A stretch of DNA of 64,000 nucleotides from an uncultured Bacteroidales bacterium (GTDB lineage: Bacteria > Bacteroidota > Bacteroidia > Bacteroidales > UBA932), in contig ONCE01000011.1 in NCBI GenBank assembly GCA_900316245.1, positions 1,827-65,826 of the forward strand, written 5' to 3'. The notes under the pieces were generated by a model that was not told the DNA's origin, did not search any database, and saw only the letters and a list, made by a program, of their open reading frames with translations. Below are positions 3,432 through 53,565 of this stretch, piece after piece. Position 1 is the stretch's first letter, and each line of letters opens with the position of its first letter. The position numbers and the translations under genes were made by a program.

Positions 3432-3700
3432 AGGGCGGTTAGATTCAAATCAGATACAAATATAGTTTTTTTATTTTTAAGGAGTTTGTTTTTGATAGGT
3501 TTGTTGAAAAGTTGATAACTTTCTTCAAGTGATTGAAAACTAATTTTTTAAAAGTAAAAGTGATTGTTGAAAAAAGCAGGATGACCTGTTGAGGAAATGT
3601 GAATGGCTTGAACACCCATTTTCTTTAACTCCTGAAAATGAGTTATCAACAGGGTTATCAACAGCTTTTCAACAGGGAAAATGAAGGGAATGTTGATAAG
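3432..3700. other. Candidate replication origin (oriC) / DnaA-box cluster
   Basis: AT-rich divergent intergenic region with six exact TTWTCAACA 9-mers (3502-, 3565-, 3643+, 3655+, 3666+, 3691-) plus degenerate copies; each is one mismatch from the DnaA box TTWTNCACA. Confidence 0.6.
3457..3464 (-). promoter_or_regulatory. -7 promoter element (TATATTTG) for ruvB
   Basis: caaatata at 3457-3464, 25 nt upstream of the ruvB ATG. Confidence 0.65.
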
Positions 3701-30005: not shown

Positions 30006-30033
30006 CAAAATTAACAATAATTTTGTATCTTTG
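30006..30033. promoter_or_regulatory. Bidirectional promoter (CAAAATTA-N12-TATCTTTG) for the TamB-like gene and tsaD
   Basis: Two opposed TAnnTTTG elements, at 30006-30013 (-) and 30026-30033 (+). Confidence 0.75.
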
Positions 30034-30053
30034 CACCCCTAATAGTTTCAACC

Positions 30054-31076
30054 ATGGCCGATTATATCCTGGGCATAGAATCCTCCTGCGACGACACTTC
30101 CGCTGCCGTTCTCCGGGACGGTGTGCTCCTGTCCAACGTAATTGCCTCACAGCAAGTCCATAAGGACTTTGGCGGGGTGGTTCCGGAGCTGGCTTCCCGT
30201 GCCCACGAGCAGAATATCGTTCCCGTGGTTTCAGAGGCGCTTCGCCGGGCCGGCGTAGAAGCCTCGCAGTTATCGGCCATTGCCTTTACCCGCGGTCCGG
30301 GCCTGCTGGGCTCGCTGCTGGTGGGCACTTCCTTTGCCAAGGCCCTGTCCCTCTCGCTGGATATCCCCATGGTTATGGTGAACCACCTTCAGGGGCACAT
30401 CCTGGCCAACTTCGTGCGCCAGCCGGACGTCCCCGTCCGCGAACCGTCCTTCCCGTATCTGTGCCTGCTGGTTTCCGGCGGCAACTCCCAGATTGTCAAG
30501 GTGAACAGCCCCCTGGAGTACGAGATTCTGGGCCAGACCATAGACGACGCCGTGGGAGAGGCCTTTGACAAGTGCTCCAAGATGCTGGGCCTGGGTTATC
30601 CGGGTGGCCCCGTGATCGACCGCCTGGCCAAGCAGGGAGACCCCAACCGGTTCCAGTTTGCCAAGCCCAACATCCCCGGCCTGGATTACAGTTTTTCCGG
30701 CATCAAGACTTCCCTGCTGTACTTTGTGAGGGACGAACTGGCCAAGGACCCCAACTTCCTGGAAAACAACAAGGAAGACCTCTGCGCCAGCTTCCAGAAA
30801 ACGCTCATCGACATCCTGATGACCAAGCTCATCCGCGCCGCCAAGGAAACCCGCATCCGGGAAATCACCATAGGCGGCGGCGTCAGTGCCAACAGCGGCC
30901 TCCGGGAAAGGATTGTGGCCGAAGGCGAAAAGCGTCACTGGAACACCTACCTGCCGGAATTCAAGTTCACCACCGACAACGCCGCGATGATAGCCGTGGC
31001 CGGCTGGTTCCAGTACAAGGCCGGCGTCCGCACCCCGCTGGACGTGGCCCCCGTCTCCCGTATGGCCGATTTCTAG
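30054..31076 (+). CDS. tsaD: tRNA N6-adenosine threonylcarbamoyltransferase TsaD
   Basis: GIESSCDDT, GGVVPELASRAH, GPGLLGSL, NHLQGH, LLVSGG, DDAVGEAFDK, GGGVSANS and TDNAAMIA motifs. Confidence 0.97.
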   Translation: MADYILGIESSCDDTSAAVLRDGVLLSNVIASQQVHKDFGGVVPELASRAHEQNIVPVVSEALRRAGVEASQLSAIAFTRGPGLLGSLLVGTSFAKALSLSLDIPMVMVNHLQGHILANFVRQPDVPVREPSFPYLCLLVSGGNSQIVKVNSPLEYEILGQTIDDAVGEAFDKCSKMLGLGYPGGPVIDRLAKQGDPNRFQFAKPNIPGLDYSFSGIKTSLLYFVRDELAKDPNFLENNKEDLCASFQKTLIDILMTKLIRAAKETRIREITIGGGVSANSGLRERIVAEGEKRHWNTYLPEFKFTTDNAAMIAVAGWFQYKAGVRTPLDVAPVSRMADF

Positions 31077-31143
31077 GCCCTTTGGAAATGTCGCCGATTA
31101 TTCCGACCTTTGAAGGTTAGAACGACATAACCAAAAAGACTCT

Positions 31144-32250
31144 ATGGGAAAATATAAAAACGATGCCCGCGTGGTCCTGACCCTGGATGCAGGCGGCAAT
31201 TCCCTCCGCTTCAACGCCATGAAGGGAGAAGAATTCATTCTGGAAACCATCACCCTCCCTTCCAACGCCAATGACTTGGACCTGTGCCTGCAATCGATGG
31301 TAACGGGCTTCAAGACGGTCATCAACCAGCTGGGCAACGTGAAACCCGAGGCCATCAGCTTCGCTTTCCCCGGTCCGGCAGACTATCCCGCCGGCATCAT
31401 CGGCGGCTTCCTGCCCAACTTCCCGTCGTTCCGTGACGGCGTGGCCCTGGGACCGTACCTGAAGGAAGTCTTCGGCATTCCTGTTTTCATCAACAACGAC
31501 GGAGACCTCTTTGCCTTTGGCGAGGCCCTCAGCGGCGCCCTTCCGGAGGTAAACGACAAGCTGGCGGAATACGGCAGCAACAAACGCTTCCGCAACCTCA
31601 TCGGCTATACCTTCGGCACCGGCTGCGGCATTGGCTGCGTCATCAACGGCCAGCTCAACCGCGGAGACAACAGCTGCGTGGAAACCTACTGCCTGCCCAA
31701 TCCGCACATTGGCGGCGTCATCCTGGAAGACAGCATTGCCATCCGCGCCGTCAAGAGAGTGTATTCAGAGCAGTCCGGCGAACAGGATCCCAACCTGACC
31801 CCCAAGGACATCTATGACATAGCCGACGGCAAGCGCCCCGGCAACAAGAAGGCCGCCCTGGCCGCTTTTGCGGAAATGGGCCACGTGGCCGGTCTGGCCA
31901 TCGCCCAGGCCGCCCAGCTGATGGACGGCATCGTGGTCATCGGCGGAGGCATCTCGGCTTCGGCCAAGTTCTTTATGCCGGCCCTCCTGGAAGAGATGAG
32001 GGGCACCGTCCGTACCCTGGGCGGAGACGTCCTGCAGCGGGTGCAGATGAAGGTCTACAACCTGGACGACGAGGCCGAATTCGCCGCGTTTGCCAAGGGA
32101 GAGGCCCGCGAACTCAAGATTTACGGAACGGACAAGACCGTTACCTACGACCCTCAGAAGCGTATCGGCATCATCCTGGACAAGATAGGCACTTCTACCG
32201 CCATCTCCGTAGGTGCCTATGACTTCGCCCTCGCCGAACTGGACAGCTAA
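31144..32250 (+). CDS. ROK-family sugar kinase
   Basis: TLDAGG, FAFPGPADY, FINNDGDLFAFGE, TFGTGCGIG and VIGGGIS motifs. Confidence 0.88.
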   Translation: MGKYKNDARVVLTLDAGGNSLRFNAMKGEEFILETITLPSNANDLDLCLQSMVTGFKTVINQLGNVKPEAISFAFPGPADYPAGIIGGFLPNFPSFRDGVALGPYLKEVFGIPVFINNDGDLFAFGEALSGALPEVNDKLAEYGSNKRFRNLIGYTFGTGCGIGCVINGQLNRGDNSCVETYCLPNPHIGGVILEDSIAIRAVKRVYSEQSGEQDPNLTPKDIYDIADGKRPGNKKAALAAFAEMGHVAGLAIAQAAQLMDGIVVIGGGISASAKFFMPALLEEMRGTVRTLGGDVLQRVQMKVYNLDDEAEFAAFAKGEARELKIYGTDKTVTYDPQKRIGIILDKIGTSTAISVGAYDFALAELDS

Positions 32251-32299
32251 ACCACGAAGGGCCCACGAAACCCCTCCCCTCGGGGGAGGGACTTGAGAT

Positions 32300-33856
<1,557 letters not shown>

Positions 33857-33857
33857 T

Positions 33858-34814
33858 ATGAACAGACGTTTAGGCATCTTACTGCTGGTTTGCGTGGCGC
33901 TTTCCTGCGGCACAAAGAAGAAGGCGGCCCCTGCAGCGCCCGCCACCCGGGATTTCCCTATGGCCGAAGTCCCCGTAATGATTACCGAGCCCCACGAGCG
34001 GGCGGTGTGGATTGCGCAGCATTTCTGGGACCGGTTCACCCAGCCGGACAAGCTCTACGCCTGCGATTCGCTGCTGGTGAACGGCGTTCCCAACGAGAAG
34101 CTGGAGCAGCAGGTGGGCCTTTTCGCCTCCATTCTCCAGAACCTGCCGCTGCAGGACGGAATGGCGGCTATGGAAACCACCTACAACCGCCTGGAGGCCT
34201 TCCAGAAGGCCCAGCCCAAGGGAAACGTGTTTGAAAAGACATCGGCCCTGATCGGGCGCTATTTCTATGACCCCAACTCCCCCGTCCGGAACGAGGAACT
34301 GTACCTGCCGTTCGTTTCCAAGATGGCGGTTTCAGACCTGGTACCGGACAGCGAGAAAGGCCAGTACGCCTGGGATACAAGAGTGTGCTCCCTCAACCGC
34401 ATAGGCACTCCGGCGGCCGATTTCCGCTTTGTGGATACGGCCGGCCGCAACCGGACCCTGTATGGCATCAAGGCAGAGTGGACGCTCCTGATCTTCGGCA
34501 ACCCGGACTGCACCGCCTGCCGCCAGCTGATGGAGGATATGGGCGCCTCCGTGGCCATCTCCAACCTCATCAACTCCGGCCGCCTCAAGGTGGTGGACGT
34601 GTATATTGACGATGAGATAGATCTGTGGAAAGAGCGCCGGGACAGCTATCCTTCGGCCTGGATCAACGGCTACGATCCCACCTTCACCATCCGCACGGAC
34701 CGCATCTACGCCGTGCGTGCCGTCCCGTCCCTGTACCTGCTGGATCAGGACAAGAACGTGGCTCTCAAAGATTGTCCCGCAGAACTGGCGTTACAGATTC
34801 TGGAGACGCTGTAA
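33858..34814 (+). CDS. DUF5106-domain lipoprotein with C-terminal thioredoxin-like fold
   Basis: Lipobox ALSC; HFWDRF; YFYDPNSPVRNEELY; CTAC (CxxC); PSLYLLD. Confidence 0.75.
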   Translation: MNRRLGILLLVCVALSCGTKKKAAPAAPATRDFPMAEVPVMITEPHERAVWIAQHFWDRFTQPDKLYACDSLLVNGVPNEKLEQQVGLFASILQNLPLQDGMAAMETTYNRLEAFQKAQPKGNVFEKTSALIGRYFYDPNSPVRNEELYLPFVSKMAVSDLVPDSEKGQYAWDTRVCSLNRIGTPAADFRFVDTAGRNRTLYGIKAEWTLLIFGNPDCTACRQLMEDMGASVAISNLINSGRLKVVDVYIDDEIDLWKERRDSYPSAWINGYDPTFTIRTDRIYAVRAVPSLYLLDQDKNVALKDCPAELALQILETL

Positions 34815-35858
34815 TCAGGCTTCAAATACCCAGATAATGGCTTCTTCCATCACCTCTCCGGGACGGAGAACGGTGGTGGGATACTGCGGCCGGTTGGGGG
34901 AATCGGGGCAGTGCTGGCACTCTATGGCTACGCCGTCGTAGTCCTCGTACGCACGGGTTTTACCCTGAGGGCAGCCCTTGAGCCAGTTGCCGGTATATAC
35001 CTGCACGGCCGGCTGGGTGGTGAGGACGGTCAGGTGACGGCCGCTCTTGGCAGCCCATAACTGAGCCGCCTCCGAAAGCTGGCCGGGGATATAGCCGTCA
35101 ATGAGATAGCAGTTGTCGTAGCCCTTGCCGTATTTGAGGGCGGGGAAATCGGCCTTGATGTCCCGGCCGATGGTTTTGGCCTCTACAAAGTCCATGGGCG
35201 TTCCGGCCACATCCTCGGGGTCTCCCAGCGGGATGAGGTTTTCATCCGTGGGGAGATACTGGGAGGCGTTGAGTTCCAGTTTGTGGTTCAAAACGCTGCC
35301 GGAGGCCTCTCCGTCCAGGTTGAAATAGACGTGGTTGGTGAGGTTGACCACCGTGGGCTTGTCGGTTTCGGCCGTGAGGATGAGCTTGAGGGAATTGTCC
35401 TCGGCCCAGGTGTAGTGGGCCACGGCCTTGAGGTTGCCGGGGTAGCCGGCTTCTCCGTCCTCGGAGTAATAGAGGAACTCTACGGCGTCTCCCTCCACGC
35501 GGCTTTCCCAAACCTGGCTGTGGAAGCCCTGGGGGCCGCCGTGCAGGTGGTTGGGGCCGTTGTTGATGGGAAGGTTGTATTCTACTCCGTCCAGGGTAAA
35601 CTTACCCTTGGCAATGCGGTTGGCATAGCGGCCGGGCACCTTGCCGGAGCAAGGGCCGTCTCCCAAATAATCCAGAGGGTTCTTGTAACCCAGTGCTACA
35701 TCTCCCAGTTTGCCGTCTTTGTCCGGTACCACAATGGAAACGATGGCGGCTCCTATGTTGGTTAGCTGCACATAGGCGCCGGAGGCGTTTTTAAGCGTGT
35801 AAAGGAGGATCTCCTTTCCGTCGGGAGCCTGGCCCCAGGATTCTTTGGTTATGGTCAT
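34815..35858 (-). CDS. galM: Aldose 1-epimerase (galactose mutarotase)
   Basis: GRYANRI, NHLHGG, GYPGNL, NLTNHVYFNL, GYDNCY and ECQHCPDSPN motifs. Confidence 0.95.
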   Translation of the reverse strand: MTITKESWGQAPDGKEILLYTLKNASGAYVQLTNIGAAIVSIVVPDKDGKLGDVALGYKNPLDYLGDGPCSGKVPGRYANRIAKGKFTLDGVEYNLPINNGPNHLHGGPQGFHSQVWESRVEGDAVEFLYYSEDGEAGYPGNLKAVAHYTWAEDNSLKLILTAETDKPTVVNLTNHVYFNLDGEASGSVLNHKLELNASQYLPTDENLIPLGDPEDVAGTPMDFVEAKTIGRDIKADFPALKYGKGYDNCYLIDGYIPGQLSEAAQLWAAKSGRHLTVLTTQPAVQVYTGNWLKGCPQGKTRAYEDYDGVAIECQHCPDSPNRPQYPTTVLRPGEVMEEAIIWVFEA

Positions 35859-35861
35859 GGG

Positions 35862-36356
35862 TTATTTCTTTTTGTAAATCACGAATTCAAAAGTGTAGCC
35901 GGTCTCGGGGTCCGTGTGGGTCTCCGAGGTGCTCACACGCTCCCAGACGGCGGGGTCAATCTCCGGGAAGAAGACGTCTGCGTCCGGCAGCACGGTGTGT
36001 ACGTGGGTGATGTAGAGCTTGTCCATCTCCGGCATGGCGGCCCGGTAAACGGAAGCGCCGCCCATCACGAAACACTTTTCGGCCCCGGTTTCCTGGGCCT
36101 CTTTGTAGGCTTCCTCAAACGAATAGACGCACGTGACCTCCGGAATGGGGTCTCCGCCCAGGTTGAGCACGATGTTCTTTCTGCCTTTCAGCGGGCGGAA
36201 GGGCAGGGAGAAATACGTGGTGCGGCCCATAATGACCGGGAAACCCTTGGTGGTTTCCTTGAAATACTTGAGGTCTTCCGCAATGTGCCAGGGAAGTTGG
36301 TTCTTGATTCCGATGCCCCAGTTATCGGCAACGGCTACTATTAAGCATTTTTCCAT
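35862..36356 (-). CDS. folA: Dihydrofolate reductase
   Basis: IGIKNQLPWH, DLKYFK, MGRTTY, RPLKGRKNIV, GGASVY and DVFFP motifs. Confidence 0.95.
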   Translation of the reverse strand: MEKCLIVAVADNWGIGIKNQLPWHIAEDLKYFKETTKGFPVIMGRTTYFSLPFRPLKGRKNIVLNLGGDPIPEVTCVYSFEEAYKEAQETGAEKCFVMGGASVYRAAMPEMDKLYITHVHTVLPDADVFFPEIDPAVWERVSTSETHTDPETGYTFEFVIYKKK

Positions 36357-36357
36357 A

Positions 36358-37152
36358 TTATACGGCTACAGGTGCTTTGATGGCAGGCCACGGGTCATAG
36401 CCTTCCAGGGTGAAATCTTCGTATTTGAAATCGAACACGGACTTGACATCCGGGTTCAGGCGCATCTTGGGAAGCGGGCGGGGCTCGCGGGAAAGCTGCA
36501 GGGCCACCTGCTCGAAATGGTTGCGGTACAGGTGGGTGTCTCCCGTGGTGTGGATGAACTCACCGGGCTCCAGGCCGCAGACCTGGGCCAGCATCAGGGT
36601 CAGGAGGGCGTAGGATGCGATGTTGAAGGGAACGCCCAGGAACACGTCTGCGCTGCGCTGATACAGCTGGCAGGAAAGTTTTCCATTGGCCACATAGAAC
36701 TGGAACAGGCAGTGGCAGGGCGGCAGGGCCATCTTGTCCACCTCTCCGGGGTTCCAGGCGCAGACCAGCATCCGGCGCGAATCCGGGTTGTTCTTGATGA
36801 GGTCGATGACCTGGGACAGCTGGTCTATGGAGCGGCCGTCGGGGGCGGGCCAGGAGCGCCACTGGTGCCCGTACACCGGACCCAGTTCTCCGTTTTCGTC
36901 GGCCCACTCGTCCCAGATGGTGACGCCGTGCTCCTGCAGGTACCGCACGTTGGTGTTACCGGAAATGAACCACAGAAGTTCGTAGATAATGGATTTGAGG
37001 TGCACCTTCTTGGTGGTGAGGAGGGGGAATCCGTCCGCCAGGTTAAAGCGCATCTGATAGCCGAAAACGCTTTGCGTTCCGGTACCGGTACGGTCTTCTT
37101 TCAGGGCGCCGTTGGCGCGGATATGGCGCAGGAGGTCTAGATACTGTTGCAT
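36358..37152 (-). CDS. thyA: Thymidylate synthase
   Basis: [54 protein letters not shown] and DTHLY motifs. True start is ATG 37152. Confidence 0.97.
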
Positions 37153-37157
37153 GTATG

Positions 37158-37185
37158 CAAACTTACGCAAAATTCATTATCTTTG
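37158..37185. promoter_or_regulatory. Bidirectional promoter (CAAACTTA-N12-TATCTTTG) for thyA and the NSS transporters
   Basis: Opposed TAnnTTTG elements at 37158-37165 (-) and 37178-37185 (+). Confidence 0.75.
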
Positions 37186-37226
37186 CAAGCAGTAGTGTAT
37201 CAAGAAAGCCCCGGAAAAAGACGCTT

Positions 37227-38588
37227 ATGAAATCCTCACGAGAAAACTTCGGCGGCCGCATGGCCGTCATCGCCGCTTTTGCCGGTAGCGCCATTGGGTT
37301 GGGAAACATTTGGAGATTTCCCTATTTGGTAGGAGAAAACGGAGGCGCCGCCTTTATTTTCATTTACATCGCTTTCACCCTCATTCTTTCCCTGCCTATC
37401 TTTCTGGCCGAAAGTGCCATCGGACGCAGTAGCCAGGCCAACTGCCGGGCCGCGGTGGGTTTTCTGGTACCCGGCCGGGTGGGACAGATGTTCGGCCTTC
37501 TGATGGTGTTCACCCCTCTCTGGATTGTGTCTTACTACTCCGTGGTGGGAGGCTGGAGCATAGACTATCTGGTCCAGGCCTGCCATCTGGATTTTGCGCG
37601 CTCCACGCCGGACCAGCTGGCCGGGGGATTTGAGCGCTTCATTGCCCGGCCCTGGCTTCCGGTTGTGTTTCACCTGGCTTTTTTGGGCATAACCGTAGCG
37701 GTGGTGGCCTTCGGGGTCAAGGACGGCATTGAGAAGTTCTGCAAATGGAGCATTCCCACGCTGTTTGTCCTCATTGTCTTCCTGGTGGTGTATTCGGCTA
37801 CGCTTCCCGGCGCTTTCAAGGGCGTGGAATACCTGCTGAAGCCCGATTTCTCCAAGGTGACGGCCCACACTTTCATCGATGCGCTGGGGCAGTCGTTCTT
37901 CTCCCTGTCCCTGGGAACTGGCATCGTCATCACCTATTCTTCCTATGTGAAAAAGAACGAGAACCTGGTGCTGGCCGGTGTGGGAACGGCGGTGAGCGAC
38001 CTTCTGTTTGCCATCCTGGCCGGCTTTGCCATCATTCCGGCCGTATTTTCCGCCGGCATCGCGCCCGGAACCGGTCCTACCCTCATTTTCGACACTCTGC
38101 CCTTCCTCTTCTCCAGCTTGGCACAGCACGCTCCCATCCTCAGCTCCGTTGCCTCCATCCTGTTCTTCCTGGCCATTTTCATTGCGGCCCTCACCTCCTC
38201 CATTTCCCTCCTGGAAGTAGGCGTGGCCTACCTCACGGAAGAGCGGGGGCTCAGGCGCGGCTGGGCCTGCTTCCTGCTGTTTGTCCTGTGCGGAGCCCTG
38301 GGCTCGCTGTGCAGCCTTTCCTTCGGCCCGCTTTCTCACGTGAAACTGCTGGGGCTCAACCTCTTTGATTTTGCCGACAGCACGGCTTCCAACGTCTTTA
38401 TGGTGCTGGGCAGCCTCATCTCCGTGGTCCTGGCCGGCTGGGTGATGCCCCGCAAGGTTCTCTTCCACGAACTCACCAACGGGGGCGTCCTGCGTAAGAA
38501 CGCCCGCCTGTTCCCGCTCATCCTGTTCCTGATGCGCTACGTGGCCCCCATCGGCATCCTGACGCTCATCCTGTCCTCTGTCCTGTAA
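37227..38588 (+). CDS. Sodium-dependent transporter, NSS/SNF family (copy 1)
   Basis: GSAIGLGNIWRFPY, GGAAF, GQSFFSLSLG and TSSISLLE motifs; likely ATG 37227. Confidence 0.93.
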   Translation: MKSSRENFGGRMAVIAAFAGSAIGLGNIWRFPYLVGENGGAAFIFIYIAFTLILSLPIFLAESAIGRSSQANCRAAVGFLVPGRVGQMFGLLMVFTPLWIVSYYSVVGGWSIDYLVQACHLDFARSTPDQLAGGFERFIARPWLPVVFHLAFLGITVAVVAFGVKDGIEKFCKWSIPTLFVLIVFLVVYSATLPGAFKGVEYLLKPDFSKVTAHTFIDALGQSFFSLSLGTGIVITYSSYVKKNENLVLAGVGTAVSDLLFAILAGFAIIPAVFSAGIAPGTGPTLIFDTLPFLFSSLAQHAPILSSVASILFFLAIFIAALTSSISLLEVGVAYLTEERGLRRGWACFLLFVLCGALGSLCSLSFGPLSHVKLLGLNLFDFADSTASNVFMVLGSLISVVLAGWVMPRKVLFHELTNGGVLRKNARLFPLILFLMRYVAPIGILTLILSSVL

Positions 38589-39943: not shown

Positions 39944-39944
39944 C

Positions 39945-42569: not shown

Positions 42570-42576
42570 AGGAATA

Positions 42577-42584
42577 CAAATATA
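42577..42584 (-). promoter_or_regulatory. -7 promoter element (TATATTTG) for mutS
   Basis: caaatata, 7 nt upstream of ATG 42569. Confidence 0.65.
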
Positions 42585-42605
42585 CAAATAATTTCTAACC
42601 GTCGT

Positions 42606-42718
42606 TTGGGCCAGGTGGGATTTCGTGCCGCCCACCGCGCCCGCATAACGAGCCTTTTGCGAACGGAGAGGCCAAAACAATGGGCCAGGTGGTACACGTA
42701 GAATCCCACCTGGCCCAA
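42606..42718. repeat. 113-bp intergenic element with perfect 17-bp terminal inverted repeats (MITE-like)
   Basis: ttgggccaggtgggatt (42606-42622) and aatcccacctggcccaa (42702-42718); an internal 12-bp copy tgggccaggtgg at 42681-42692. Confidence 0.75.
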
Positions 42719-42736
42719 GTCATAATCCCCAAAAGC

Positions 42737-43417
42737 CTATTTCCACCAGTTGGGTTTGGCGTAGGAGAAGTCCTTCCGCTCGGCAGCCCAGGCGTCGTTT
42801 ACGTACACCGTATCGGCCCGGTCGGTGTAAAGAATGCCGTCCAGATGGTCGCACTCGTGCTGGAAGATAATGGCCGAATAGCCGTCTACCTGCTCCGAGA
42901 CAAAGGTCCCGTCCGGCGTCAGATAGCTGATCTGCACACTGGGATAGCGGCGCACGATGCCTTGGTAAGGCGGCAGGGAAAGGCAGCCCTCGGGACCCGG
43001 CTGAGGGGTGCCGTACAGACTGTCAATCTGGATATTCAGATAGGGCTCGATGGGCTGGCCGGGCTTGTCGTAGCGCATGACCAGCACTATGCGGCGGTTG
43101 ATGCCCACCTGCGGTGCGGCCAGGCCCACGCCGTCCTGGGAAGGATCGGTAAGGGTGTGCATCATCTTGGCCAGGAGAGTCTTGAGCTCGGAAGAGGCCA
43201 GCTCCCGGTCCGAGAGGTTGGGACTGACGGCCCGCAGGATGGCGCTGTCTTGCGGCATCACGCAGACGTACATCAGGGAATCCGACTTTTCAATTACCGT
43301 CCGTTCCCAGTGGGAAAACGGATGGGAGTGTTTCCATAAGAGAAAACCCAACAGCACCACCAGGCACAGGAGGATGGGAAGCGAGGCTTTTTTGCGGAAT
43401 AGTTTCTTAGCGTTCAT
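42737..43417 (-). CDS. def: Peptide deformylase with N-terminal transmembrane/signal segment
   Basis: GVGLAAPQVG, EGCLS and QHECDHLDG catalytic motifs; hydrophobic LPILLCLVVLLGFLLW after a basic N-terminus; ATG 43417. Confidence 0.88.
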   Translation of the reverse strand: MNAKKLFRKKASLPILLCLVVLLGFLLWKHSHPFSHWERTVIEKSDSLMYVCVMPQDSAILRAVSPNLSDRELASSELKTLLAKMMHTLTDPSQDGVGLAAPQVGINRRIVLVMRYDKPGQPIEPYLNIQIDSLYGTPQPGPEGCLSLPPYQGIVRRYPSVQISYLTPDGTFVSEQVDGYSAIIFQHECDHLDGILYTDRADTVYVNDAWAAERKDFSYAKPNWWK

Positions 43418-43422
43418 AGTCA

Positions 43423-43450
43423 CAAAGGTAGTAAATATTTCCTATCTTTG
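43423..43450. promoter_or_regulatory. Bidirectional promoter (CAAAGGTA-N12-TATCTTTG) for def and the GT4 gene
   Basis: Opposed TAnnTTTG elements at 43423-43430 (-) and 43443-43450 (+). Confidence 0.75.
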
Positions 43451-43457
43451 CAGGTGT

Positions 43458-44750
43458 ATGAAGCGCGTACTGGTCATAGCCTATTACTGGCCGCCGTCCG
43501 GAGGGTCGGGGGTGCAACGCTGGGTCAAATTTGTGAAGTATCTGTCGGCCGAAGGCTGGCAGCCCGTGGTGTTTGCCCCGTCCAACGCAGATTACCCCTC
43601 CCTGGACCCGTCCTTCGAGGCCGAAGTCCCTTCCGAGGTAGAGGTGCTGCGGGGCCCCATCTGGGAGCCCTATTCGGCCTACCGGAAACTTACCGGTGCC
43701 AAGAGTACGCAAGTGACGGAAATCTCTTCCGGCAAAAAGACGCCCAAGCAGAAACTCAGTCTCTGGGTCCGGGCCAACCTCTTTGTGCCGGACCCCCGCG
43801 TGGGCTGGGTAAAACCCTCCGTGAAGACCCTCAAGGCGTATCTGGCCCAACATCCGGTAGACGCCATCGTCACCACCGGTCCGCCGCATTCCGTGCACCT
43901 GATAGGCCAGCGTCTCCACAAGGACCTGGGTACGCCCTGGATTCCGGATTTCCGGGATCCCTGGAGCCGGATGTACTACCTCAAGTACCTTCCTATGACC
44001 TCCGGCATCTGGGCCCGGCTGAGGAAGATGGAGCAGGACGTGCTGGACCAAAGTACCGCCGTACTGACCTGCACGCCGCAGGTACAGGCCGAATTCCGGG
44101 CGCAGACCCAGACGCCCGTGGCGTGCATCACCAACGGTTTTGACGAAGAAGATTTCGCCGGCCCCGCACCCAAGGGGGACGGCCTGTTCAATATCACCCA
44201 CACCGGGCTTTTCGCGGCCGACGGCAACCCCCTGGCCCTCTGGAAAGTACTGGAGAAACTGGCCAAGACGGAGCCCGGCTTCAAGCAGGAACTGCGCCTC
44301 CGCCTGGTAGGAAAAGTGGACCGGGAAGTGCTGGACGCCATAGCGGCGGCCGGCCTTTCGGACAACGTGGTGCTGCTGGGGCCCCTGAATCACGCCGAGG
44401 CCGTGAAGGAGCAGCGCAGCGCCAGCCTTCTGCTGCTGCCCCTGAGAAACGACCCCCAGTACGCCCCCATCCTGCCCGGTAAACTCTTCGAGTACCTGGC
44501 GGCCCGCCGCCCCATCCTGGGAATCGGCCAGGAAGAAGGGGCCATGGCCCAGGTAATCTTCAACGCCCAGGCCGGCATAACGGCCGACTGGGAGAACCCG
44601 GCGCCTATGCGCGCCTTCCTGGCCCACGCCTGGCAACAGCATTGCGAAGGCGGCATCCCCGCCACAACGGGGGATATAACCCCCTATACCCGCCGCGCCA
44701 CCACCCACGCGTTGGCGCAACTTCTGGAAAAAGTAACCCAAAATGAATAA
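43458..44750 (+). CDS. Glycosyltransferase family 4 protein
   Basis: MKRVLVIAYYWPPSGGSGVQRW, TTGPPHSVH, DFRDPW, ITNGFD and PGKLFEYLA motifs. True start is ATG 43458, not 43077. Confidence 0.92.
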   Translation: MKRVLVIAYYWPPSGGSGVQRWVKFVKYLSAEGWQPVVFAPSNADYPSLDPSFEAEVPSEVEVLRGPIWEPYSAYRKLTGAKSTQVTEISSGKKTPKQKLSLWVRANLFVPDPRVGWVKPSVKTLKAYLAQHPVDAIVTTGPPHSVHLIGQRLHKDLGTPWIPDFRDPWSRMYYLKYLPMTSGIWARLRKMEQDVLDQSTAVLTCTPQVQAEFRAQTQTPVACITNGFDEEDFAGPAPKGDGLFNITHTGLFAADGNPLALWKVLEKLAKTEPGFKQELRLRLVGKVDREVLDAIAAAGLSDNVVLLGPLNHAEAVKEQRSASLLLLPLRNDPQYAPILPGKLFEYLAARRPILGIGQEEGAMAQVIFNAQAGITADWENPAPMRAFLAHAWQQHCEGGIPATTGDITPYTRRATTHALAQLLEKVTQNE

Positions 44751-47232: not shown

Positions 47233-49043
47233 AATCCGTTCGTCAGATAGCCCTGGCCCTGTTTCTTCTGGCCTTTGCCCCTTCCCTGCATGCGCAGTGG
47301 ACAGGGACCTTCAACATAAGCGGGGGATACTGGCAGATGCCCTCCCGTTCGGAGGAGGACCTGGCCTTGGAAAATGCCTTGGGAAAGGCCGGGGTGCAAA
47401 TGACGTACAAGACCCGGAAACTGCTTTGGGAAACCAACCTGAACGGACAGTTTACCAGCAAGCAGACGGATGTAATCCGCCTCTCCGTAAGCAACAAGGG
47501 CGGAAACATAGAAGAGGAAATCCGGGATGCCGCAGAGACCGAGATGCTGGACAAACTCAAGGGACAGGAGGTCTGGAACGCGGATTTTAAAACAAGAGTG
47601 CTGTTTAAACCCGCTGTGGGCCGGGAATATGAAACCTGGTTGCAGTATACGTTCAAAAGCGACGAATCGCTTACCGGGTCGGACCGCGACAAGTACAGAT
47701 ACAACAAGGAGAACGAGGACTGGGTCAACCTGGAAGAGCTTTTTATTGAATCCGCCCTCCAAACCGACCATTCGGCCCTGGGAGGCTTCCGCACCTCGCA
47801 CCGGCTGGGCTCTCCCAGGCGGGTGCTCAAAGGCGAAATCACCCTGCAGGAGAAGTGGCAGGACAAGAACAGCAGCTGGACCAAACTGAAGGGAGTGGAG
47901 GCCGAGCTGGAAAACTGGGACCTCACGGCCTATCGCCTGACCCCCAGTTCGTCCAGTCAGATTGTCAACACCTCCGTCCACCTGCAAGACTCCGTGATAA
48001 CCTCGGGCCCCGTCCGCCTGCATATAGACCCCGGCGTACGCGTCAGGGGTGAGTATACCCACGACCGCAAGAGCGGCGCCAACCTGGAACCCGACGGAAC
48101 CTGGAAGGACAGTACCCGCCTGCGGGAGACCTTTGACTTCCTGTCCTTGGCCATTGAGCCTTATCTGGTAGCGGATTTCTCGTGGTCGAAGCTTCGTGCC
48201 CATATCAACTATGCCCCCCAGATCTATGGCCGTAAGCTGACCGACGATACCCATACCCAGAACCTCCAGTTCCAGCGCCTCTACCTGGTGGGAGACTCGT
48301 ATCTGAGCTGGACGTTCTCTCCCTCCCACAAATTATACCTCAGGAGCAAGTCCTCGGTAAGCCATCCTTCCTATATCCAGATTTGCTGGTACGAGCGCCA
48401 GGGTAACTACCTGACCCAGATTTACCGGGGCAAGGAATCGTTGCGTTCCGTGCCATCGCATGCCGTCAGTCTGGAATACGAATTCAAGTACAAGCGCTTC
48501 TCTTCCACAACCACCTTCTCCTATACGTCCAAGCGCGACGAAATTGACCAGACCTTCACCAACGAGACCATCGATGGCCGCGACTATCAGGTATTTACCT
48601 GGGTCAACGCCTCCAACAGCCGGGTGCTGGGCTTCTCCGAGAAACTGGGCTGGAAGGGGAAGATTCTTACGGCCAATGTGGGCGTCAATTACAACGGGAC
48701 CCGCCGCATCCGGCAGGAAACCGGGAACATCAAGAAATCCACGGACTGGCGAGCCTGGGCCGATGCCTCCCTTCGCCTCGGCCACGGCTGGACCGTGGGG
48801 GCCGATGTGAACTACCGTAGCGCCGTAGCCACGTTCTTTACCTTGTTCAAGGGGTATTGCGCGTTCAATGCCCGGATCCAGAAAGACTTCAAAAGAATAA
48901 CCCTTACCTTGGAGGGTAAGGATTTACTGGATAAAAGGGAAGAAAAGGAGTTCATCTCAGAAAACCAGAGCGAGGCCTGGATTGAGGTTTCCCGCCTCAA
49001 CCGCCGGATGATCGTTCTGGGAATCCGCTGGAAATTCCTTTAG
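47229..49043 (+). CDS. Outer-membrane beta-barrel protein (OMP_b-brl_3-like)
   Basis: Signal peptide ending LHA; amphipathic strands; C-terminal LEGKDLLD...RMIVLGIRWKFL. Confidence 0.65.
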   Translation: MKSVRQIALALFLLAFAPSLHAQWTGTFNISGGYWQMPSRSEEDLALENALGKAGVQMTYKTRKLLWETNLNGQFTSKQTDVIRLSVSNKGGNIEEEIRDAAETEMLDKLKGQEVWNADFKTRVLFKPAVGREYETWLQYTFKSDESLTGSDRDKYRYNKENEDWVNLEELFIESALQTDHSALGGFRTSHRLGSPRRVLKGEITLQEKWQDKNSSWTKLKGVEAELENWDLTAYRLTPSSSSQIVNTSVHLQDSVITSGPVRLHIDPGVRVRGEYTHDRKSGANLEPDGTWKDSTRLRETFDFLSLAIEPYLVADFSWSKLRAHINYAPQIYGRKLTDDTHTQNLQFQRLYLVGDSYLSWTFSPSHKLYLRSKSSVSHPSYIQICWYERQGNYLTQIYRGKESLRSVPSHAVSLEYEFKYKRFSSTTTFSYTSKRDEIDQTFTNETIDGRDYQVFTWVNASNSRVLGFSEKLGWKGKILTANVGVNYNGTRRIRQETGNIKKSTDWRAWADASLRLGHGWTVGADVNYRSAVATFFTLFKGYCAFNARIQKDFKRITLTLEGKDLLDKREEKEFISENQSEAWIEVSRLNRRMIVLGIRWKFL

Positions 49044-50101
49044 ACGGAAGCGGCCAGTTTCTTGGCCAGTTCCAGGAAGGCCTGTGAGTCGGGCCGGTCC
49101 AGAAGGGCTACGGGAGCACCCTCGTCTCCGCCTTCGCGGATGCCCTGCACCAGGGGAATCTGGCCCAGGAGGGGAAGATCCAGGTCCCCCGCCATCTTCA
49201 CGCCGCCGTCCTTTCCGAATAAATAGTATTTCTCATCGGGATGTGCCTCCGGCGTAAACCAGGCCATGTTTTCCACCAGTCCGTAGATGGGTTTGTTCAC
49301 CTGCGGATTGCGGAACATATTTACCCCGCGCAGGACATCGGCCAGGGCCACCTGCTGGGGTGTGGTTACAATGACGGCGCCCGTGAGCGGAACGTCCCCG
49401 ATGAGGGAAATATGGATGTCTCCGGTTCCCGGAGGCATGTCAATGAGCAAGAAGTCCAGCGGGCCCCAGAGGGTTTGCAGGATAATCTGCTTGAGGGCCG
49501 TTGAGGCCATGGGGCCACGCCAGATGAGCGCCTGCCCGGCGCCGGACACGTGGCCCACCGACAGCCATTTGACGCCGTACTTTTCTACGGGCACAAAGAG
49601 GTTGTCGTTCTCGTCTTCTCCGTACATTTCTATGGTGGCGTCTTCCGTCCCCGTCATAGTGGGGATGGAGGGGCCGTAAACGTCTGCGTCGGCCACGCCC
49701 ACGCGGTAGCCCAGGCGGGCCAGGGCCACGGCGAGGTTCACGGCCACGGTGCTTTTGCCCACGCCGCCTTTGCCGGAGGCCACGCCAATGATGTGGCTTA
49801 CCTCCCGCAGCTGGTCCAGATTGAACTGGATACCCTTGGGTGCGGGTTTGGCGGGGTCTTTCACAATGGTGTCCACCTCAATCTCGGTGCCGCCGGGGGC
49901 GTGCCGGTACAGGCAGGCCTGCGCAGCGCCAATAAGGTAATTCTTCAAAGGGTCGGGCCGCTTGGGGAAGGCGAGGGTCACATGGATGCGACCCTCTGCC
50001 ACTTCCACAGCGTCCACCATACCCAGTTGCAGGAGGTTCATGCCCTCCTTGGCGGGGTGCTCAACCTCCTGCAGCCAGTTATAAATGTCGGATTTTTCCA
50101 T
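49040..50101 (-). CDS. mrp: Mrp/NBP35 (ApbC) Fe-S cluster carrier ATPase
   Basis: ASGKGGVGKST, DADVYGPS, WRGPM, DMPPGTGD, VTTPQ and VENMAWF motifs. Confidence 0.93.
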   Translation of the reverse strand: MEKSDIYNWLQEVEHPAKEGMNLLQLGMVDAVEVAEGRIHVTLAFPKRPDPLKNYLIGAAQACLYRHAPGGTEIEVDTIVKDPAKPAPKGIQFNLDQLREVSHIIGVASGKGGVGKSTVAVNLAVALARLGYRVGVADADVYGPSIPTMTGTEDATIEMYGEDENDNLFVPVEKYGVKWLSVGHVSGAGQALIWRGPMASTALKQIILQTLWGPLDFLLIDMPPGTGDIHISLIGDVPLTGAVIVTTPQQVALADVLRGVNMFRNPQVNKPIYGLVENMAWFTPEAHPDEKYYLFGKDGGVKMAGDLDLPLLGQIPLVQGIREGGDEGAPVALLDRPDSQAFLELAKKLAASV

Positions 50102-50106
50102 TAAAA

Positions 50107-52221
50107 CTACTTGGCGTAAGTGAGTTCATTGATGAGGTTGGTTGCTCCACCAACCTTTTCGACCATCCAGAGAACATAGCGGATGTCCACGCAGATGCAG
50201 CGCTGGAGGGCGGGTTCAAACATTACGTCGGAGCTCATGCTCTCCCAGTTGCCGTCGAAGGCCAGGCCAATCAGGTTGCCCTTGGCGTCCAGGACGGGGG
50301 AGCCGGAGTTGCCGCCGGTGATGTCGTTGTTGGTAAGGAAGCAGGTGTGCAGGGTGCCGTCCTCATCGGCCCAGCGGCCATAGTCGCCGGCCTGGATCAG
50401 GGCTTTCACCTTGGCGGGAAGGATGAACTCCGGATTGGTGGGATCTTCCTTCTCCAGCAGGCCCTGGGCGGTGGTGTAGTACTTGTACACGAGGGCGTCC
50501 TTGGGGCTGTAAGGCAGTACGGTGCCGTAGGTCAGGCGCATGGTGGAGTTAGCATCCGGGTACATGGCCTTGCCTTCCTGCCATTCCAGGAGGGCGCCGG
50601 CAAAGTGCTTGCGGGCCTCGTTGTATTTCTGGTCCGTGTTGGCAGCGGCGCCGCGGGGGCGGTTGGGCGAGCCGTACAGGGCCTCGTAACGCTTCATCAG
50701 GACGCCGTAAAGGCCGGAATACAGGCCCACGGCGGGATCGGTCATTACCTGCTCCAGGGTGGCCTGGGTCAGTTTCTCATAAGATGTGAAGACGCTGTTG
50801 GCATAGACTTCCTCCACATAGGCGGGGATGTCCATGGTGGCAAAGTCCTGGCCGGGGATCTCCAGGTAGTCTTCCTTGACGGCGCGCTGGCGGTAGAACT
50901 CCAGCTGGGCGGCGGCAATCTTTTTGTCCACCTCCACCACATAGTCGCGGTAGCGGGCCTCCACGCGGGGGAAGACGCTGGCCAGCTGGGCGGTGGTGTC
51001 ACGCTGCAGTTCGCGGGCATAGGCGTTCATCAGGGCGGTGTACATGGTCACCAGCTCAATGTCGCCCACGGACTCGGAAATCAGGGTCACGGCGCGGTTG
51101 TCGGCGGAGTTCTTGTGCACGTATTCGGCAATGTCCTCGATGGGGGTGCCGTATTTGGCGGCGCGGGCGGGGTCTGCGGCAATCCAAGCTTTGAGCTGGG
51201 CCTCTTTCTCCTCTTCGCGGCCAATGATGTTCAGGTTCTCGAAGGCGAGTTCCTCACCCTGCCATTTCTTCCAGCCGTTGGCGCTGCCGGCGTATTTGTT
51301 GGCGTACTTGAGCTGGACGGAAGGGTCTGCGCACATAGCCTCCCACATAATGTCCTGGGACACGGTGCGGGCGTCGATGCGGATGCGGTTGGTGGCGATC
51401 ATCTCATTGAGCTGGGCGGCGGTCTGGTAGCGCTGGGTGCGGCCAGGGTAGCCCATAATCATGGCGTAGTCATTCTCCTTGACGCCCTTGGTGGCAATCT
51501 TCAGGCTGCGGGCGGGCTGGTAGGGAACGTTGTCGGCGCTGTAGGCGGCCGGCTGGTTGTTCTTGTCGGCGTATACGCGGAACATGGAGAAGTCGCAGGT
51601 GTGACGGGGCCACATCCAGTTGTCGGTTTCACCGCCGAACTTGCCCATGGAGGCGGAGGGGGCGGCCACGAAGCGCACGTCGCGATAGGTCTTGTAAACG
51701 ATGAGGTAGTAGACGTTCTCGTTGTAGAAGGAGTCTACCTCGGCCCGGCAGAAGGGGTTGGCTTCTTCTGCGGCTTTGATGATCTCATCGGCCTTGGCGT
51801 CCTTGTCTTCGGCCTTTTCAATCACGCTGGTCACGTCTTCCATGGAAATCAGGAAGGTGACGGAGAGGCCCGGAGCCGGGATTTCCTCGGCCAGGCTCTT
51901 GGCCCAGTAACCGTCCATCAGGTAGTTGTGCTCGTCGGAGGACAGGTTCTGGATGCTGCTGTAACCGCAGTGGTGGTTGGTTACCAGGAGGCCCTGGGAA
52001 CTGATCATCTCACCGGTGCAGCCGCCGCCGAAGTGTACGATGGCGTCTTTGAGGGAGGTCTTGTTGATGGAGTAGATTTCCTCGGGGGTGAGCTTGCAGC
52101 CCGTGGCCTTGAGGTCTTTTCCGTTGAGTTGCTTGAGGAGGGGCAGGAGCCACATTCCTTCGTCGGCAAAGGCCGTCAGAGAGAGGGCCATAGCGGCAAA
52201 AATTGCTAGAATTCGCTTCAT
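50107..52221 (-). CDS. dpp7: S46-family dipeptidyl peptidase, DPP7-type
   Basis: DEGMW, TNHHC (His), DNWMWPRH..DFS (Asp), ITGGNSGSP (Ser). AFDGNWE has Gly at the S1 position, as in DPP7 (DPP11 has Arg). Confidence 0.88.
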   Translation of the reverse strand: MKRILAIFAAMALSLTAFADEGMWLLPLLKQLNGKDLKATGCKLTPEEIYSINKTSLKDAIVHFGGGCTGEMISSQGLLVTNHHCGYSSIQNLSSDEHNYLMDGYWAKSLAEEIPAPGLSVTFLISMEDVTSVIEKAEDKDAKADEIIKAAEEANPFCRAEVDSFYNENVYYLIVYKTYRDVRFVAAPSASMGKFGGETDNWMWPRHTCDFSMFRVYADKNNQPAAYSADNVPYQPARSLKIATKGVKENDYAMIMGYPGRTQRYQTAAQLNEMIATNRIRIDARTVSQDIMWEAMCADPSVQLKYANKYAGSANGWKKWQGEELAFENLNIIGREEEKEAQLKAWIAADPARAAKYGTPIEDIAEYVHKNSADNRAVTLISESVGDIELVTMYTALMNAYARELQRDTTAQLASVFPRVEARYRDYVVEVDKKIAAAQLEFYRQRAVKEDYLEIPGQDFATMDIPAYVEEVYANSVFTSYEKLTQATLEQVMTDPAVGLYSGLYGVLMKRYEALYGSPNRPRGAAANTDQKYNEARKHFAGALLEWQEGKAMYPDANSTMRLTYGTVLPYSPKDALVYKYYTTAQGLLEKEDPTNPEFILPAKVKALIQAGDYGRWADEDGTLHTCFLTNNDITGGNSGSPVLDAKGNLIGLAFDGNWESMSSDVMFEPALQRCICVDIRYVLWMVEKVGGATNLINELTYAK

Positions 52222-52251
52222 CTTCTTAAAAGGTTTTGTGTTGAATGCCTA

Positions 52252-52259
52252 CAAAGATA
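52252..52259 (-). promoter_or_regulatory. -7 promoter element (TATCTTTG) for dpp7-mrp
   Basis: caaagata, immediately after the rnhB stop and 30 nt upstream of the dpp7 ATG. Confidence 0.6.
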
Positions 52260-52260
52260 G

Positions 52261-52875
52261 TCAAAATAGGGAAGGTTCCAACTCTTTCACGTGGAAAGAT
52301 TTCCGGTGCCAGGGGGTGTAGCCGTATTTTCGGATGGCTTCGATGTGCTCGGGCGTAGGGTAGCCCATATTGCGGTCCCAGCCGTACTGGGGATAGTCCC
52401 GGGCAATTTGGCGCATAAAATCGTCCCGGTAGGTCTTGGCCAGGACGGAAGCGGCGGCAATGGACGCAAAGGTGGCATCCCCGTGCACCACGGTCCGGTA
52501 ATCCTTGAAACCATACGGGCCGAAGGGCCGGAACTTGTTTCCGTCAATGAGAAGGAACGCCGGGGCGGGATTGAGCCGCAGCACCGCGCGCTGCATCCCC
52601 GTCACAGACGCCCAAAGGATATTGAGCTGGTCAATCTCCTGGGCCGAAACGGCCTCCACAGCCCACGCTACGGCCTCTTTCTCGATAATGGGCCGAAGTT
52701 CCTCGCGGGCCTTTTCGCTCATCTGCTTGGAGTCGTTCAGCAGGGGATGGTGGAAGTCCGGCGGAAGGATGACGGCGGCGGCGTATACCGGTCCCGCCAG
52801 CGGGCCCCTGCCCGCCTCGTCACACCCGGCCTCCCATCGGCCCGGCTCCAGATACGGTTTTAACTGCGGGATCAA
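52261..52875 (-). CDS. rnhB: Ribonuclease HII
   Basis: GCDEAGRGPLAGPV, LNDSKQ, DGNKF, GDATFASIAAASVLAK and GYPT motifs. Probable TTG start at 52875 overlapping the upstream TGA. Confidence 0.95.
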   Translation of the reverse strand: MIPQLKPYLEPGRWEAGCDEAGRGPLAGPVYAAAVILPPDFHHPLLNDSKQMSEKAREELRPIIEKEAVAWAVEAVSAQEIDQLNILWASVTGMQRAVLRLNPAPAFLLIDGNKFRPFGPYGFKDYRTVVHGDATFASIAAASVLAKTYRDDFMRQIARDYPQYGWDRNMGYPTPEHIEAIRKYGYTPWHRKSFHVKELEPSLF

Positions 52876-53516
52876 TAGCAGACGGCGAGGCCCACGGAGA
52901 AGGTGGACTGTTTGTTGAAGCCGATGGGCTGGTAGCGGAGCATCAGGCCCATGTCTTCGAACCACACGATGGCCTTCAGGTCCAGGCGGAAGCCCGTGCG
53001 CTCACGGATGGGGTAGAAGTTGTCGTGGTAGTGGACGTCATCGGCGATGTAATCATTGTGGTAGCGGATCAGGCCCAGGCCGGGAGCCACGAAGAGGCTG
53101 GCGGCCCAGCGGCTGCTGAAGCGCTGGGTATAGCCGAAGGGGAAGGAGAAGGCCACGTCCGTGATGTGGGCTTTGGCGCGGGAGTCTTCCGCAGCCCTGT
53201 AGATGTCGCCCATAGGGACGCTTTCGAAGATGTTGCCTTTCTGGAGGTAGCGGAAATCCAGCTGGATGTCCAGGATGCCCAGGGAGACAATGCTGTTCTT
53301 GGTAATCATATACTGGCCTTCCAGGATGCAGAAATCCAGGCCCAGGCCACTGCGGGACATCCCTTCCGGAACGTTGTTCACAAGGTTGTAGGAGATGCCT
53401 ATGCGGCCGGCGACATTCCACGCCGTATCTTCGAATTTGTAGTAATTATAAGAGGATTGGGCCAGTGCGGAAAGGCTAATAATGGCCGTCACAGCCAAAG
53501 CGAACAGTTTTTTCAT
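52872..53516 (-). CDS. Hypothetical exported protein, probable small beta-barrel (PorT-like)
   Basis: Signal peptide MKKLFALAVTAIISLSALA; alternating hydrophobic strands; C-terminal aromatic residue (GLAVCY). Confidence 0.55.
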   Translation of the reverse strand: MKKLFALAVTAIISLSALAQSSYNYYKFEDTAWNVAGRIGISYNLVNNVPEGMSRSGLGLDFCILEGQYMITKNSIVSLGILDIQLDFRYLQKGNIFESVPMGDIYRAAEDSRAKAHITDVAFSFPFGYTQRFSSRWAASLFVAPGLGLIRYHNDYIADDVHYHDNFYPIRERTGFRLDLKAIVWFEDMGLMLRYQPIGFNKQSTFSVGLAVCY

Positions 53517-53537
53517 CTTTTCTGGTTTTAACTTGGG

Positions 53538-53565
53538 CAAATATAACTAAATTTCCTTATATTTG
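53538..53565. promoter_or_regulatory. Bidirectional promoter (CAAATATA-N12-TATATTTG) for the hypothetical OMP gene and EF-G2
   Basis: Opposed TAnnTTTG elements at 53538-53545 (-) and 53558-53565 (+). Confidence 0.75.

Follow-up and report, generated by a model that had tools for sequence, protein, structure and literature searches.

The divergent promoters of an uncultured rumen or gut Bacteroidales bacterium (UBA932 lineage, placed by a tsaD-based scan in the genus Candidatus Cryptobacteroides; assembly GCA_900316245.1) carry opposed −7 boxes whose spacing follows whole turns of the DNA helix. Judging from sequence, we consider it probable that they are overlapping back-to-back sigma-A promoters (−7 box TAnnTTTG) which share phased upstream DNA under a genus-wide whole-helical-turn spacing rule. 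The stretch in which the arrangement was first noticed, referred to here as the window, comprises 64,000 nucleotides of contig ONCE01000011.1 (positions 1,827 to 65,826), and an earlier note made from its sequence had described a bidirectional promoter of fixed geometry, with two boxes separated by exactly 12 nt (N12), at four of five divergent gene pairs. The same four coordinates were recovered as the only exact matches to CAAANNTA-N12-TANNTTTG in the window (30006-30033, 37158-37185, 43423-43450 and 53538-53565), and by our own coding-potential gene calls they do fall at four of its five divergent pairs. In dinucleotide-preserving shuffles of the window the mean number of N12 sites was 0.01, and four were reached in 0 of 100 shuffles; the single box TAnnTTTG is enriched about twofold, at 34 occurrences against the 16.4 expected from the shuffles.

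Divergent promoters form a helical ladder

As a test of whether the architecture is constrained, the earlier note had proposed a genome-wide histogram of the spacing, and this histogram is strongly non-flat. All opposed pairs of exact boxes in the assembly (2.24 Mb, 56% G+C, with a coding density of 91% by our own calls) were tallied by spacer length, d. The divergent pairs fall into discrete classes, with 7 pairs at d = 2, then 19, 20 and 4 pairs at d = 12, 13 and 14, followed by 4, 5, 8 and 2 pairs at d = 21-24 and by 3, 7, 7 and 4 pairs at d = 31-34; there are none at d = 16-20, and nearly none at 6-10 and 25-30. As controls, pairs in convergent or in same-strand orientation gave flat histograms, with same-strand pairs at N19-20 as the sole exception. 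The cluster means of d lie at 1.8, 12.6, 22.4, 32.6 and 43.8, with a fitted step of 10.23 bp, and correspond to centre-to-centre distances between the boxes of 9.8, 20.6, 30.4, 40.6 and 51.8 bp; the periodogram peaks at 10.1 bp. At the level of genes, 240 divergent pairs were called genome-wide, of which 144 have two exact boxes and 92 have them at d ≤ 45, 32 pairs being at N12-13. The peak bins, which were chosen after the data of this genome had been inspected and which cover 41% of the possible values, contain 80 of these 92 pairs (binomial p = 1e-19). Pairs in which one box carries one mismatch are noisier, and retain the peak at 12-13 and the troughs at 8-10 and 17-20. While a constrained architecture is thus borne out, a geometry of exactly 12 nt is not: N12 and N13 are equally common, and further rungs lie at about 2, 22-23, 32-33 and 43-44. 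N12 is one rung of a helical ladder, and that the four sites of the window all have a spacer of exactly 12 is a coincidence.

A minor peak at N4-5 was considered as a class of its own and rejected, as it stems mostly from an upstream same-strand box or T-tract ahead of the real downstream box; examples are C16:25804, which has d = 5 as well as d = 32, and the first site of the window, with both d = 4 and d = 12. The enriched same-strand pairs at N19-20 (4 and 6 cases) are arranged such that the TTG of the upstream box falls at the −33 position of the downstream box.

Phased A/T tracts upstream of solo promoters

At the sequence level the spacer ladder is accounted for by A/T tracts that recur about every 10.5 bp upstream of each promoter. 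Among 409 solo promoters, defined as those without an opposed box, the A+T content (positions counted from the T of TA) peaks at −4..−9 (0.8-0.89), −14..−19 (0.66-0.76), −25..−29, −36..−41 and −46..−50, with troughs between, the tract centres being about 6, 16, 27, 38 and 48 nt upstream of the TA of the box; the same profile has TTG at −23..−21, that is, 20 nt upstream of the TA. The tract period is 10.5-10.9 bp both in promoters in tandem context and in a strict set of 147 solo controls, where the upstream gene is co-directional and 80 nt are free of any reverse box with up to one mismatch; it thus does not depend on a divergent partner. Within each tract A lies to the 5' side and T to the 3' side (AnTn), and since such a tract is self-complementary, it reads alike for both promoters.

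The sequence of the spacers between opposed boxes is not conserved, yet A/T tracts lie 3 nt from each box, the number of visible tracts rising from one (N12-13) to two (N22-23) and three (N32-33). The 4-5 positions at the centre of the N12-13 spacers are A/T in 100% of cases, A being to the left and T to the right, and at N12 the partner box (C-AAA-nn-T-A, at −20..−13) overlies what in solo promoters is the second tract, A-rich and then T-rich. A compatibility score computed from the strict solo profile on both strands has its maxima at d = 2, 12, 21, 32-35 and 44 and its minima at d = 6-10, 14-19 and 25-31; its Pearson correlation with the counts observed is 0.53 (p = 8e-5).

Of the solo promoters, 31% have the −33 TTG; among paired promoters the share is 18% at N12-13, 5% at N21-24 and 40% at N31-34. 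As its main source we considered a TTGCAA palindrome at the end of the partner box (TAnnTTTG-CAA), the geometry of which fits the 20-nt spacing between −33 and −7. This was rejected, because among the 19 pairs at N12 the palindrome is present in just 1 left flank and 4 right flanks, and because TTG is depleted in the compact pairs. Closer to the box, 68-69% of promoters have T at −4 (from the T of TA), and position −1 favours G, C or T over A; together, the T at −4 and the non-A at −1 may constitute an "extended −7" feature that closes the first A/T tract.

The spacing rule tested in the genus, the order and the phylum

For the comparison across genomes we used exact boxes throughout and took the backwards pattern as control. 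Around tsaD, 80 congeneric loci (Candidatus Cryptobacteroides, 1.38 Mb in total) were gathered, in which the spacer of the orthologous tsaD promoter varies by species and takes only values of 11-14, 21-24, 31-34, 39 and 44. After de-duplication, the opposed pairs in these loci number 36 at 11-14, 22 at 21-25 and 12 at 31-34, with zero at 15-20 and 27-30. The thyA promoter, a possible second orthologous series, is absent from these tsaD-centred loci, as synteny is not conserved. In 40 whole congeneric genomes there are about 1116 pairs at N11-14 (control about 21) and about 38 at N16-19 (control about 19), and the direction is the same in every genome.

Beyond the genus, one genome from each of 99 other Bacteroidales families yielded in total 1114 pairs at N11-14 (control 654) and 796 at N16-19 (control 686); the peak exceeds the trough in 69 genomes and the reverse holds in 21 (Wilcoxon p = 5e-8), with a median ratio of 1.4. 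The order-wide tendency is therefore real, yet weak and heterogeneous. Individual Bacteroidales genomes range from peak-to-trough counts of 11/14, 13/16 and 11/18, at or below parity, to 14/2, 12/1, 10/2 and 42/11, about fourfold or more, and one further genome has many of its listed pairs at N4-5, N16 and N25; in some lineages of the order the rule may be absent or the phase a different one. The phylum-wide generality for which the earlier note had proposed a check was not found: N12-13 is at control level (118 versus 111) in the 32 genomes taken from other orders of the Bacteroidia, and near zero in other classes. By this measure the spacing rule is sharp in the genus, weak in the order and undetectable outside the order, although beyond the genus a genuine signal may be masked by the high chance background in A/T-rich genomes.

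A model of shared phased DNA

Two diverging promoters can both keep their tracts only when the two tract arrays coincide; if the first tract of one promoter is the k-th tract of its partner, the predicted spacer is d = 12 + 10.3(k−1). This formula gives 1.7, 12, 22.3, 32.6 and 42.9, which are the observed classes. At N12-13 both promoters have the same self-complementary AnTn tract, which lies 3 nt from either box, as tract 1, and each box, which reads AAAnnT on the other strand, occupies the tract-2 slot of its partner. Physically, phased tracts could bend the DNA or narrow its minor grooves on one helical face, and the polymerase, through the C-terminal domain of its alpha subunit (alpha-CTD) or through sigma, might use this pattern of bends or grooves while wrapping upstream DNA; the integral-turn spacing would then place both boxes on the same helical face, and a dyad-symmetric layout would serve both orientations. 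With the box positioned as in Flavobacterium psychrophilum, the predicted transcription start sites (TSSs) are d + 25 bp apart, or 37-38 bp at N12-13, and each box would lie inside the upstream region of its partner, at −32..−25. Overlapping footprints would make binding mutually exclusive, the two genes sharing one control region of about 40-60 bp. E. coli-like polymerase footprints are too large for two holoenzymes at spacers of 2-23 nt, and because the footprints, if they resemble those of Escherichia coli, overlap, probably one polymerase is bound at a time; from the geometry, competition or coupling between RNA polymerases is plausible.

One could also speculate that in Cryptobacteroides and some other Bacteroidales sigma-A reads the −7 box together with the shape and phase of the tracts in preference to the −33 element, which the partner box may replace, but we regard this extension as tentative and rather doubtful. 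Were this extension correct, such promoters would be obligatorily coupled, mutually exclusive pairs, which control two, often leaderless, genes within about 40 bp, and helical phase would be under strong purifying selection, at roughly 30:1 in-phase versus out-of-phase across 40 species.

Several points weigh against the model. The gene calls behind the pair counts are crude, and that both boxes fire, and where they do so, is inferred from motif, position and conservation; the physical steps of bending, alpha-CTD contact and mutual exclusion are conjectural. The peak bins owe their definition to the data of this genome, though the pattern they capture is replicated in 40 others. The solo-profile model clearly favours N12 over N13 when N13 is equally common, and its correlation with the observed counts is moderate. 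Finally, most other Bacteroidales families follow the rule only weakly, although UP-type periodicity is reported to be widespread, so that a lineage-specific factor would be needed, for which compaction, high G+C and polymerase differences are candidates.

Alternative explanations

The best-surviving alternative, although in our judgement an unlikely one, is a single fixed N12 module, in which the opposite −7 box sets the distance, either as a specific upstream, −33-like contact or because two polymerases compete for one footprint. It would explain the four exact N12 sites in the window, the location of the opposite box at −32..−25 from the predicted TSS, where it adjoins the −33 TTG position of solo promoters, and the depletion of the −33 TTG in compact pairs, as though it had been replaced. 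It does not explain why N13 is just as frequent or why further classes exist at 2, 22-23, 32-33 and 43-44; moreover, the opposite box reads CAAA, and not TTG, on the relevant strand, and phased tracts occur without a partner box and predict the whole series. The suggestion in the earlier note that each box may act as the upstream contact for the opposite polymerase retains some merit, in that the box does sit at the second-tract position and has the composition of the tract (AAA..T), but the phased tracts of partnerless promoters explain the spacer series better than a contact from box to box.

Somewhat less probable again is a direct or torsional coupling between the two polymerases or their open complexes, in which twist, supercoiling or a protein contact on the same face selects the phase and the tracts are secondary. 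That centre-to-centre distances are integral helical turns is what such a coupling would produce, and divergent promoters of E. coli are known to couple by supercoiling (PMC4469952). The tract periodicity is, however, equally present in unidirectional promoters, and the partner is thus not needed for it; in addition, at spacers of 2-23 nt two holoenzymes cannot bind together if their footprints are like those of E. coli.

We give very little credence to the possibility that the pseudo-palindromes serve a dimeric global regulator or nucleoid protein as operators, or that they arose as an inverted duplication or mobile promoter cassette. The sites do look dyad-symmetric, and the earlier note had described a 28-bp pseudo-palindrome, but the half-sites are simply −7 boxes, they occur in several spacer classes, and the spacers and flanks differ between sites. 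More decisively, the halves of one site are no more alike than the halves of different sites (own halves 5.5 and 6.5 versus cross 6.2 and 6.5 matches per 18; permutation p = 0.95 and 0.55). Operator, inverted duplication and cassette were rejected on these grounds, and the palindromy reflects the shared promoter consensus only.

Chance or mere intergenic compaction, with N12 as the minimum, is the least credible of all, and the periodic histogram refutes it. In its favour, the genome is of small size (2.24 Mb) and densely coding (91%), and many pairs flank genes predicted to be leaderless; but chance predicts 0.01 sites per window, and compaction would set a minimum, not empty classes at 15-20 and 25-30 with refilled ones at 22-23 and 32-33, quite apart from the existence of N2 pairs.

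Relation to known promoter systems

In gene organisation and in their overlapping upstream regions, the pairs that we attribute to shared phased DNA resemble the back-to-back class of Beck and Warren, whose 1988 classification of back-to-back and overlapping divergent promoters reportedly dealt with individual cases, with no genome-wide helical quantisation. Closer in kind is the class described by Warman, Grainger and colleagues, that is, bidirectional promoters with preferred offsets set by symmetry, which are known in E. coli and archaea (bioRxiv 10.1101/2020.01.31.928960; PMC12825309). As in that class, opposed promoters share a short piece of DNA between divergent genes, the offsets are discrete and follow from the symmetry of the elements, the binding of one polymerase is expected to exclude the other, and the solo profile taken on both strands peaks near the observed spacers, as their treatment of preferred offsets would lead one to expect. 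The two differ in what is shared. In E. coli the −10 hexamers overlap and share base pairs, with TSSs 7-25 bp apart (mode 18), whereas here the −7 boxes are separate (12-13 nt), the predicted TSSs are about 37-38 bp apart and the melting elements do not overlap; the series is a plain 10.2-bp helical ladder, and the shared part is the upstream A/T tract instead of the melting element. Separate divergent promoters are excluded from the term "bidirectional" by the explicit definition of Warman et al., and in E. coli competition at bidirectional promoters becomes important only if one of the two directions is strongly activated (both PMC12825309).

The A/T tracts have a counterpart of their own in UP elements, of which that of rrnB P1 is the classical example. 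Tracts of A and of T that alternate at a period of about 10 bp are present in the UP elements of most bacteria (PMC12641261), and this "wave" of tracts, which spans about 40-50 bp upstream of the core promoter, is much like the one seen here, except that here the tracts begin immediately upstream of the −7 box, within the spacer between −7 and −33. A quantisation of divergent promoters arising from the tract wave has apparently not been described before, to our knowledge.

With the canonical sigma-A (sigma-ABfr) promoter of Bacteroidota, −33 TTTG and −7 TAnnTTTG (Bayley 2000 and Vingadassalom 2005, cited through PMC7366714), the present promoters share the −7 box; the solo-promoter profile clearly has the TTG 20 nt upstream of the TA, but only 31% of solo promoters possess it; in contrast to it, compact divergent pairs mostly lack the −33 TTG. 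The literature that we searched contained no account of divergent- or bidirectional-promoter geometry in Bacteroides or Bacteroidota. The arrangement is best filed as an apparently undescribed class, in which sigma-A promoters overlap back to back at helically quantised distances, and it would extend the concept of the bidirectional promoter beyond overlapping −10 elements to a second class. Recognition by the primary sigma factor of Bacteroidota is poorly understood past the −7 box, and the spacing rule may offer a handle on the role of upstream DNA phase in initiation. It would also predict the divergent gene pairs that have a single polymerase site in common and may compete for it, and could guide the design of compact cassettes for two-way expression (N12-13, with an AnTn tract at the centre) in gut or rumen Bacteroidales.

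The four divergent pairs in the window

The gene identities given in the earlier note were largely upheld by Pfam (TamB and TsaD, thymidylate synthase and an SNF-family symporter, peptide deformylase and a GT4 glycosyltransferase, and an EF-G-like GTPase, as well as RuvB and Mfd at the fifth pair), with the exception of the "OMP" label, for which there was no Pfam match; its view that the paired genes are functionally unrelated agrees with these assignments.

At the first site, the minus-strand −7 box TAATTTTG (30006..30013) faces the TamB-family gene (25445-29998), whose start codon, at 29998, is 7 nt past the box, and the leader of this gene is predicted to be absent or very short. The N12 spacer between the TamB-family and tsaD boxes (30014..30025) contains an A/T tract as well as an extra plus-strand copy of TAATTTTG (30018-30025), which directly abuts the plus-strand −7 box TATCTTTG (30026..30033) of tsaD (30054-31076); the latter box is separated from the ATG by a gap of 20 nt.

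The second site pairs thyA (36358-37152; minus-strand −7 box TAAGTTTG, 37158..37165), whose start codon is 5 nt past the box, with the gene for the SNF-family (Na+) symporter (plus-strand −7 box TATCTTTG, 37178..37185). The start call of thyA is sound, because the Pfam profile begins at residue 2 and the ThyA N-terminus is canonical, and its mRNA is predicted to be leaderless or to have a 1-nt leader. The probable start of the symporter gene is an ATG at 37227, which shares its frame with the start called at 37260.

Most compact is the third site, where the minus-strand −7 box TACCTTTG (43423..43430) lies 5 nt from the start codon of the peptide deformylase gene def (42737-43417) and the plus-strand −7 box TATCTTTG (43443..43450) lies 7 nt from that of the GT4 glycosyltransferase gene (43458-44750). 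The intergenic region (43417-43458) totals 40 bp, made up of 5 nt, box, N12, box and 7 nt, such that two promoters and two apparently leaderless starts are accommodated with no further non-coding DNA.

The gaps are longer at the fourth site, which has the same −7 box, TATATTTG, on either side: on the minus strand (53538..53545), with a gap of 21 nt to the start of the gene (52872-53516, minus strand) for a 214-aa protein without a Pfam match, and on the plus strand (53558..53565), with a gap of 42 nt to the start of the EF-G-like GTPase gene (53608-55746).

The ruvB/mfd pair

The fifth divergent pair, ruvB (2391-3431, minus strand) and mfd (plus strand, from 3681 or 3789), the products of which are confirmed by Pfam as RuvB and Mfd, had been set apart as lacking the N12 architecture. 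Its spacer is indeed not N12, but opposed boxes are present (3457..3503), with TATATTTG on the minus strand (3457-3464) and TAGGTTTG on the plus strand (3496-3503) 31 nt apart, in the third helical class. It is uncertain whether the plus-strand box drives mfd, as the start of this gene is 177 nt or more downstream of the box. The region between ruvB and mfd also contains, within 200 bp (3502-3699), seven TTATCAACA-like words (at most one mismatch, both strands), the remaining 9 such matches being spread over the rest of the 64 kb; as a run of DnaA-box-like repeats, the cluster is consistent with the suggestion of the earlier note that oriC may lie here.

Boxes, start codons and leaders

The genome contains 1205 TAnnTTTG boxes, 632 of which precede a called start of the same strand by no more than 150 nt. 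Measured from the G of the box to the start codon, the gap is sharply bimodal: 122 promoters have a gap of 3-9 nt (peaks at 4 and 6-7), there are none at 10-12 nt and 2 at 13-14 nt, and a broad class begins at 15 nt (mode 18-25). In F. psychrophilum the −7 box lies at −12..−5 relative to the TSS (PMC9723704), and the sharp class of 4-7 nt between box and ATG lends indirect support to a transcription start about 5 nt past the box. About 19% of the exact-box promoters, those with a start codon 3-9 nt past the box, are thus predicted to be leaderless or to have a leader of at most 4 nt; published leaderless shares are 3.7% in Bacteroides thetaiotaomicron and 5.5% in F. psychrophilum. Among the N11-14 pairs genome-wide, 5 of 35 are predicted to be leaderless on both sides and 15 of 35 on one side.

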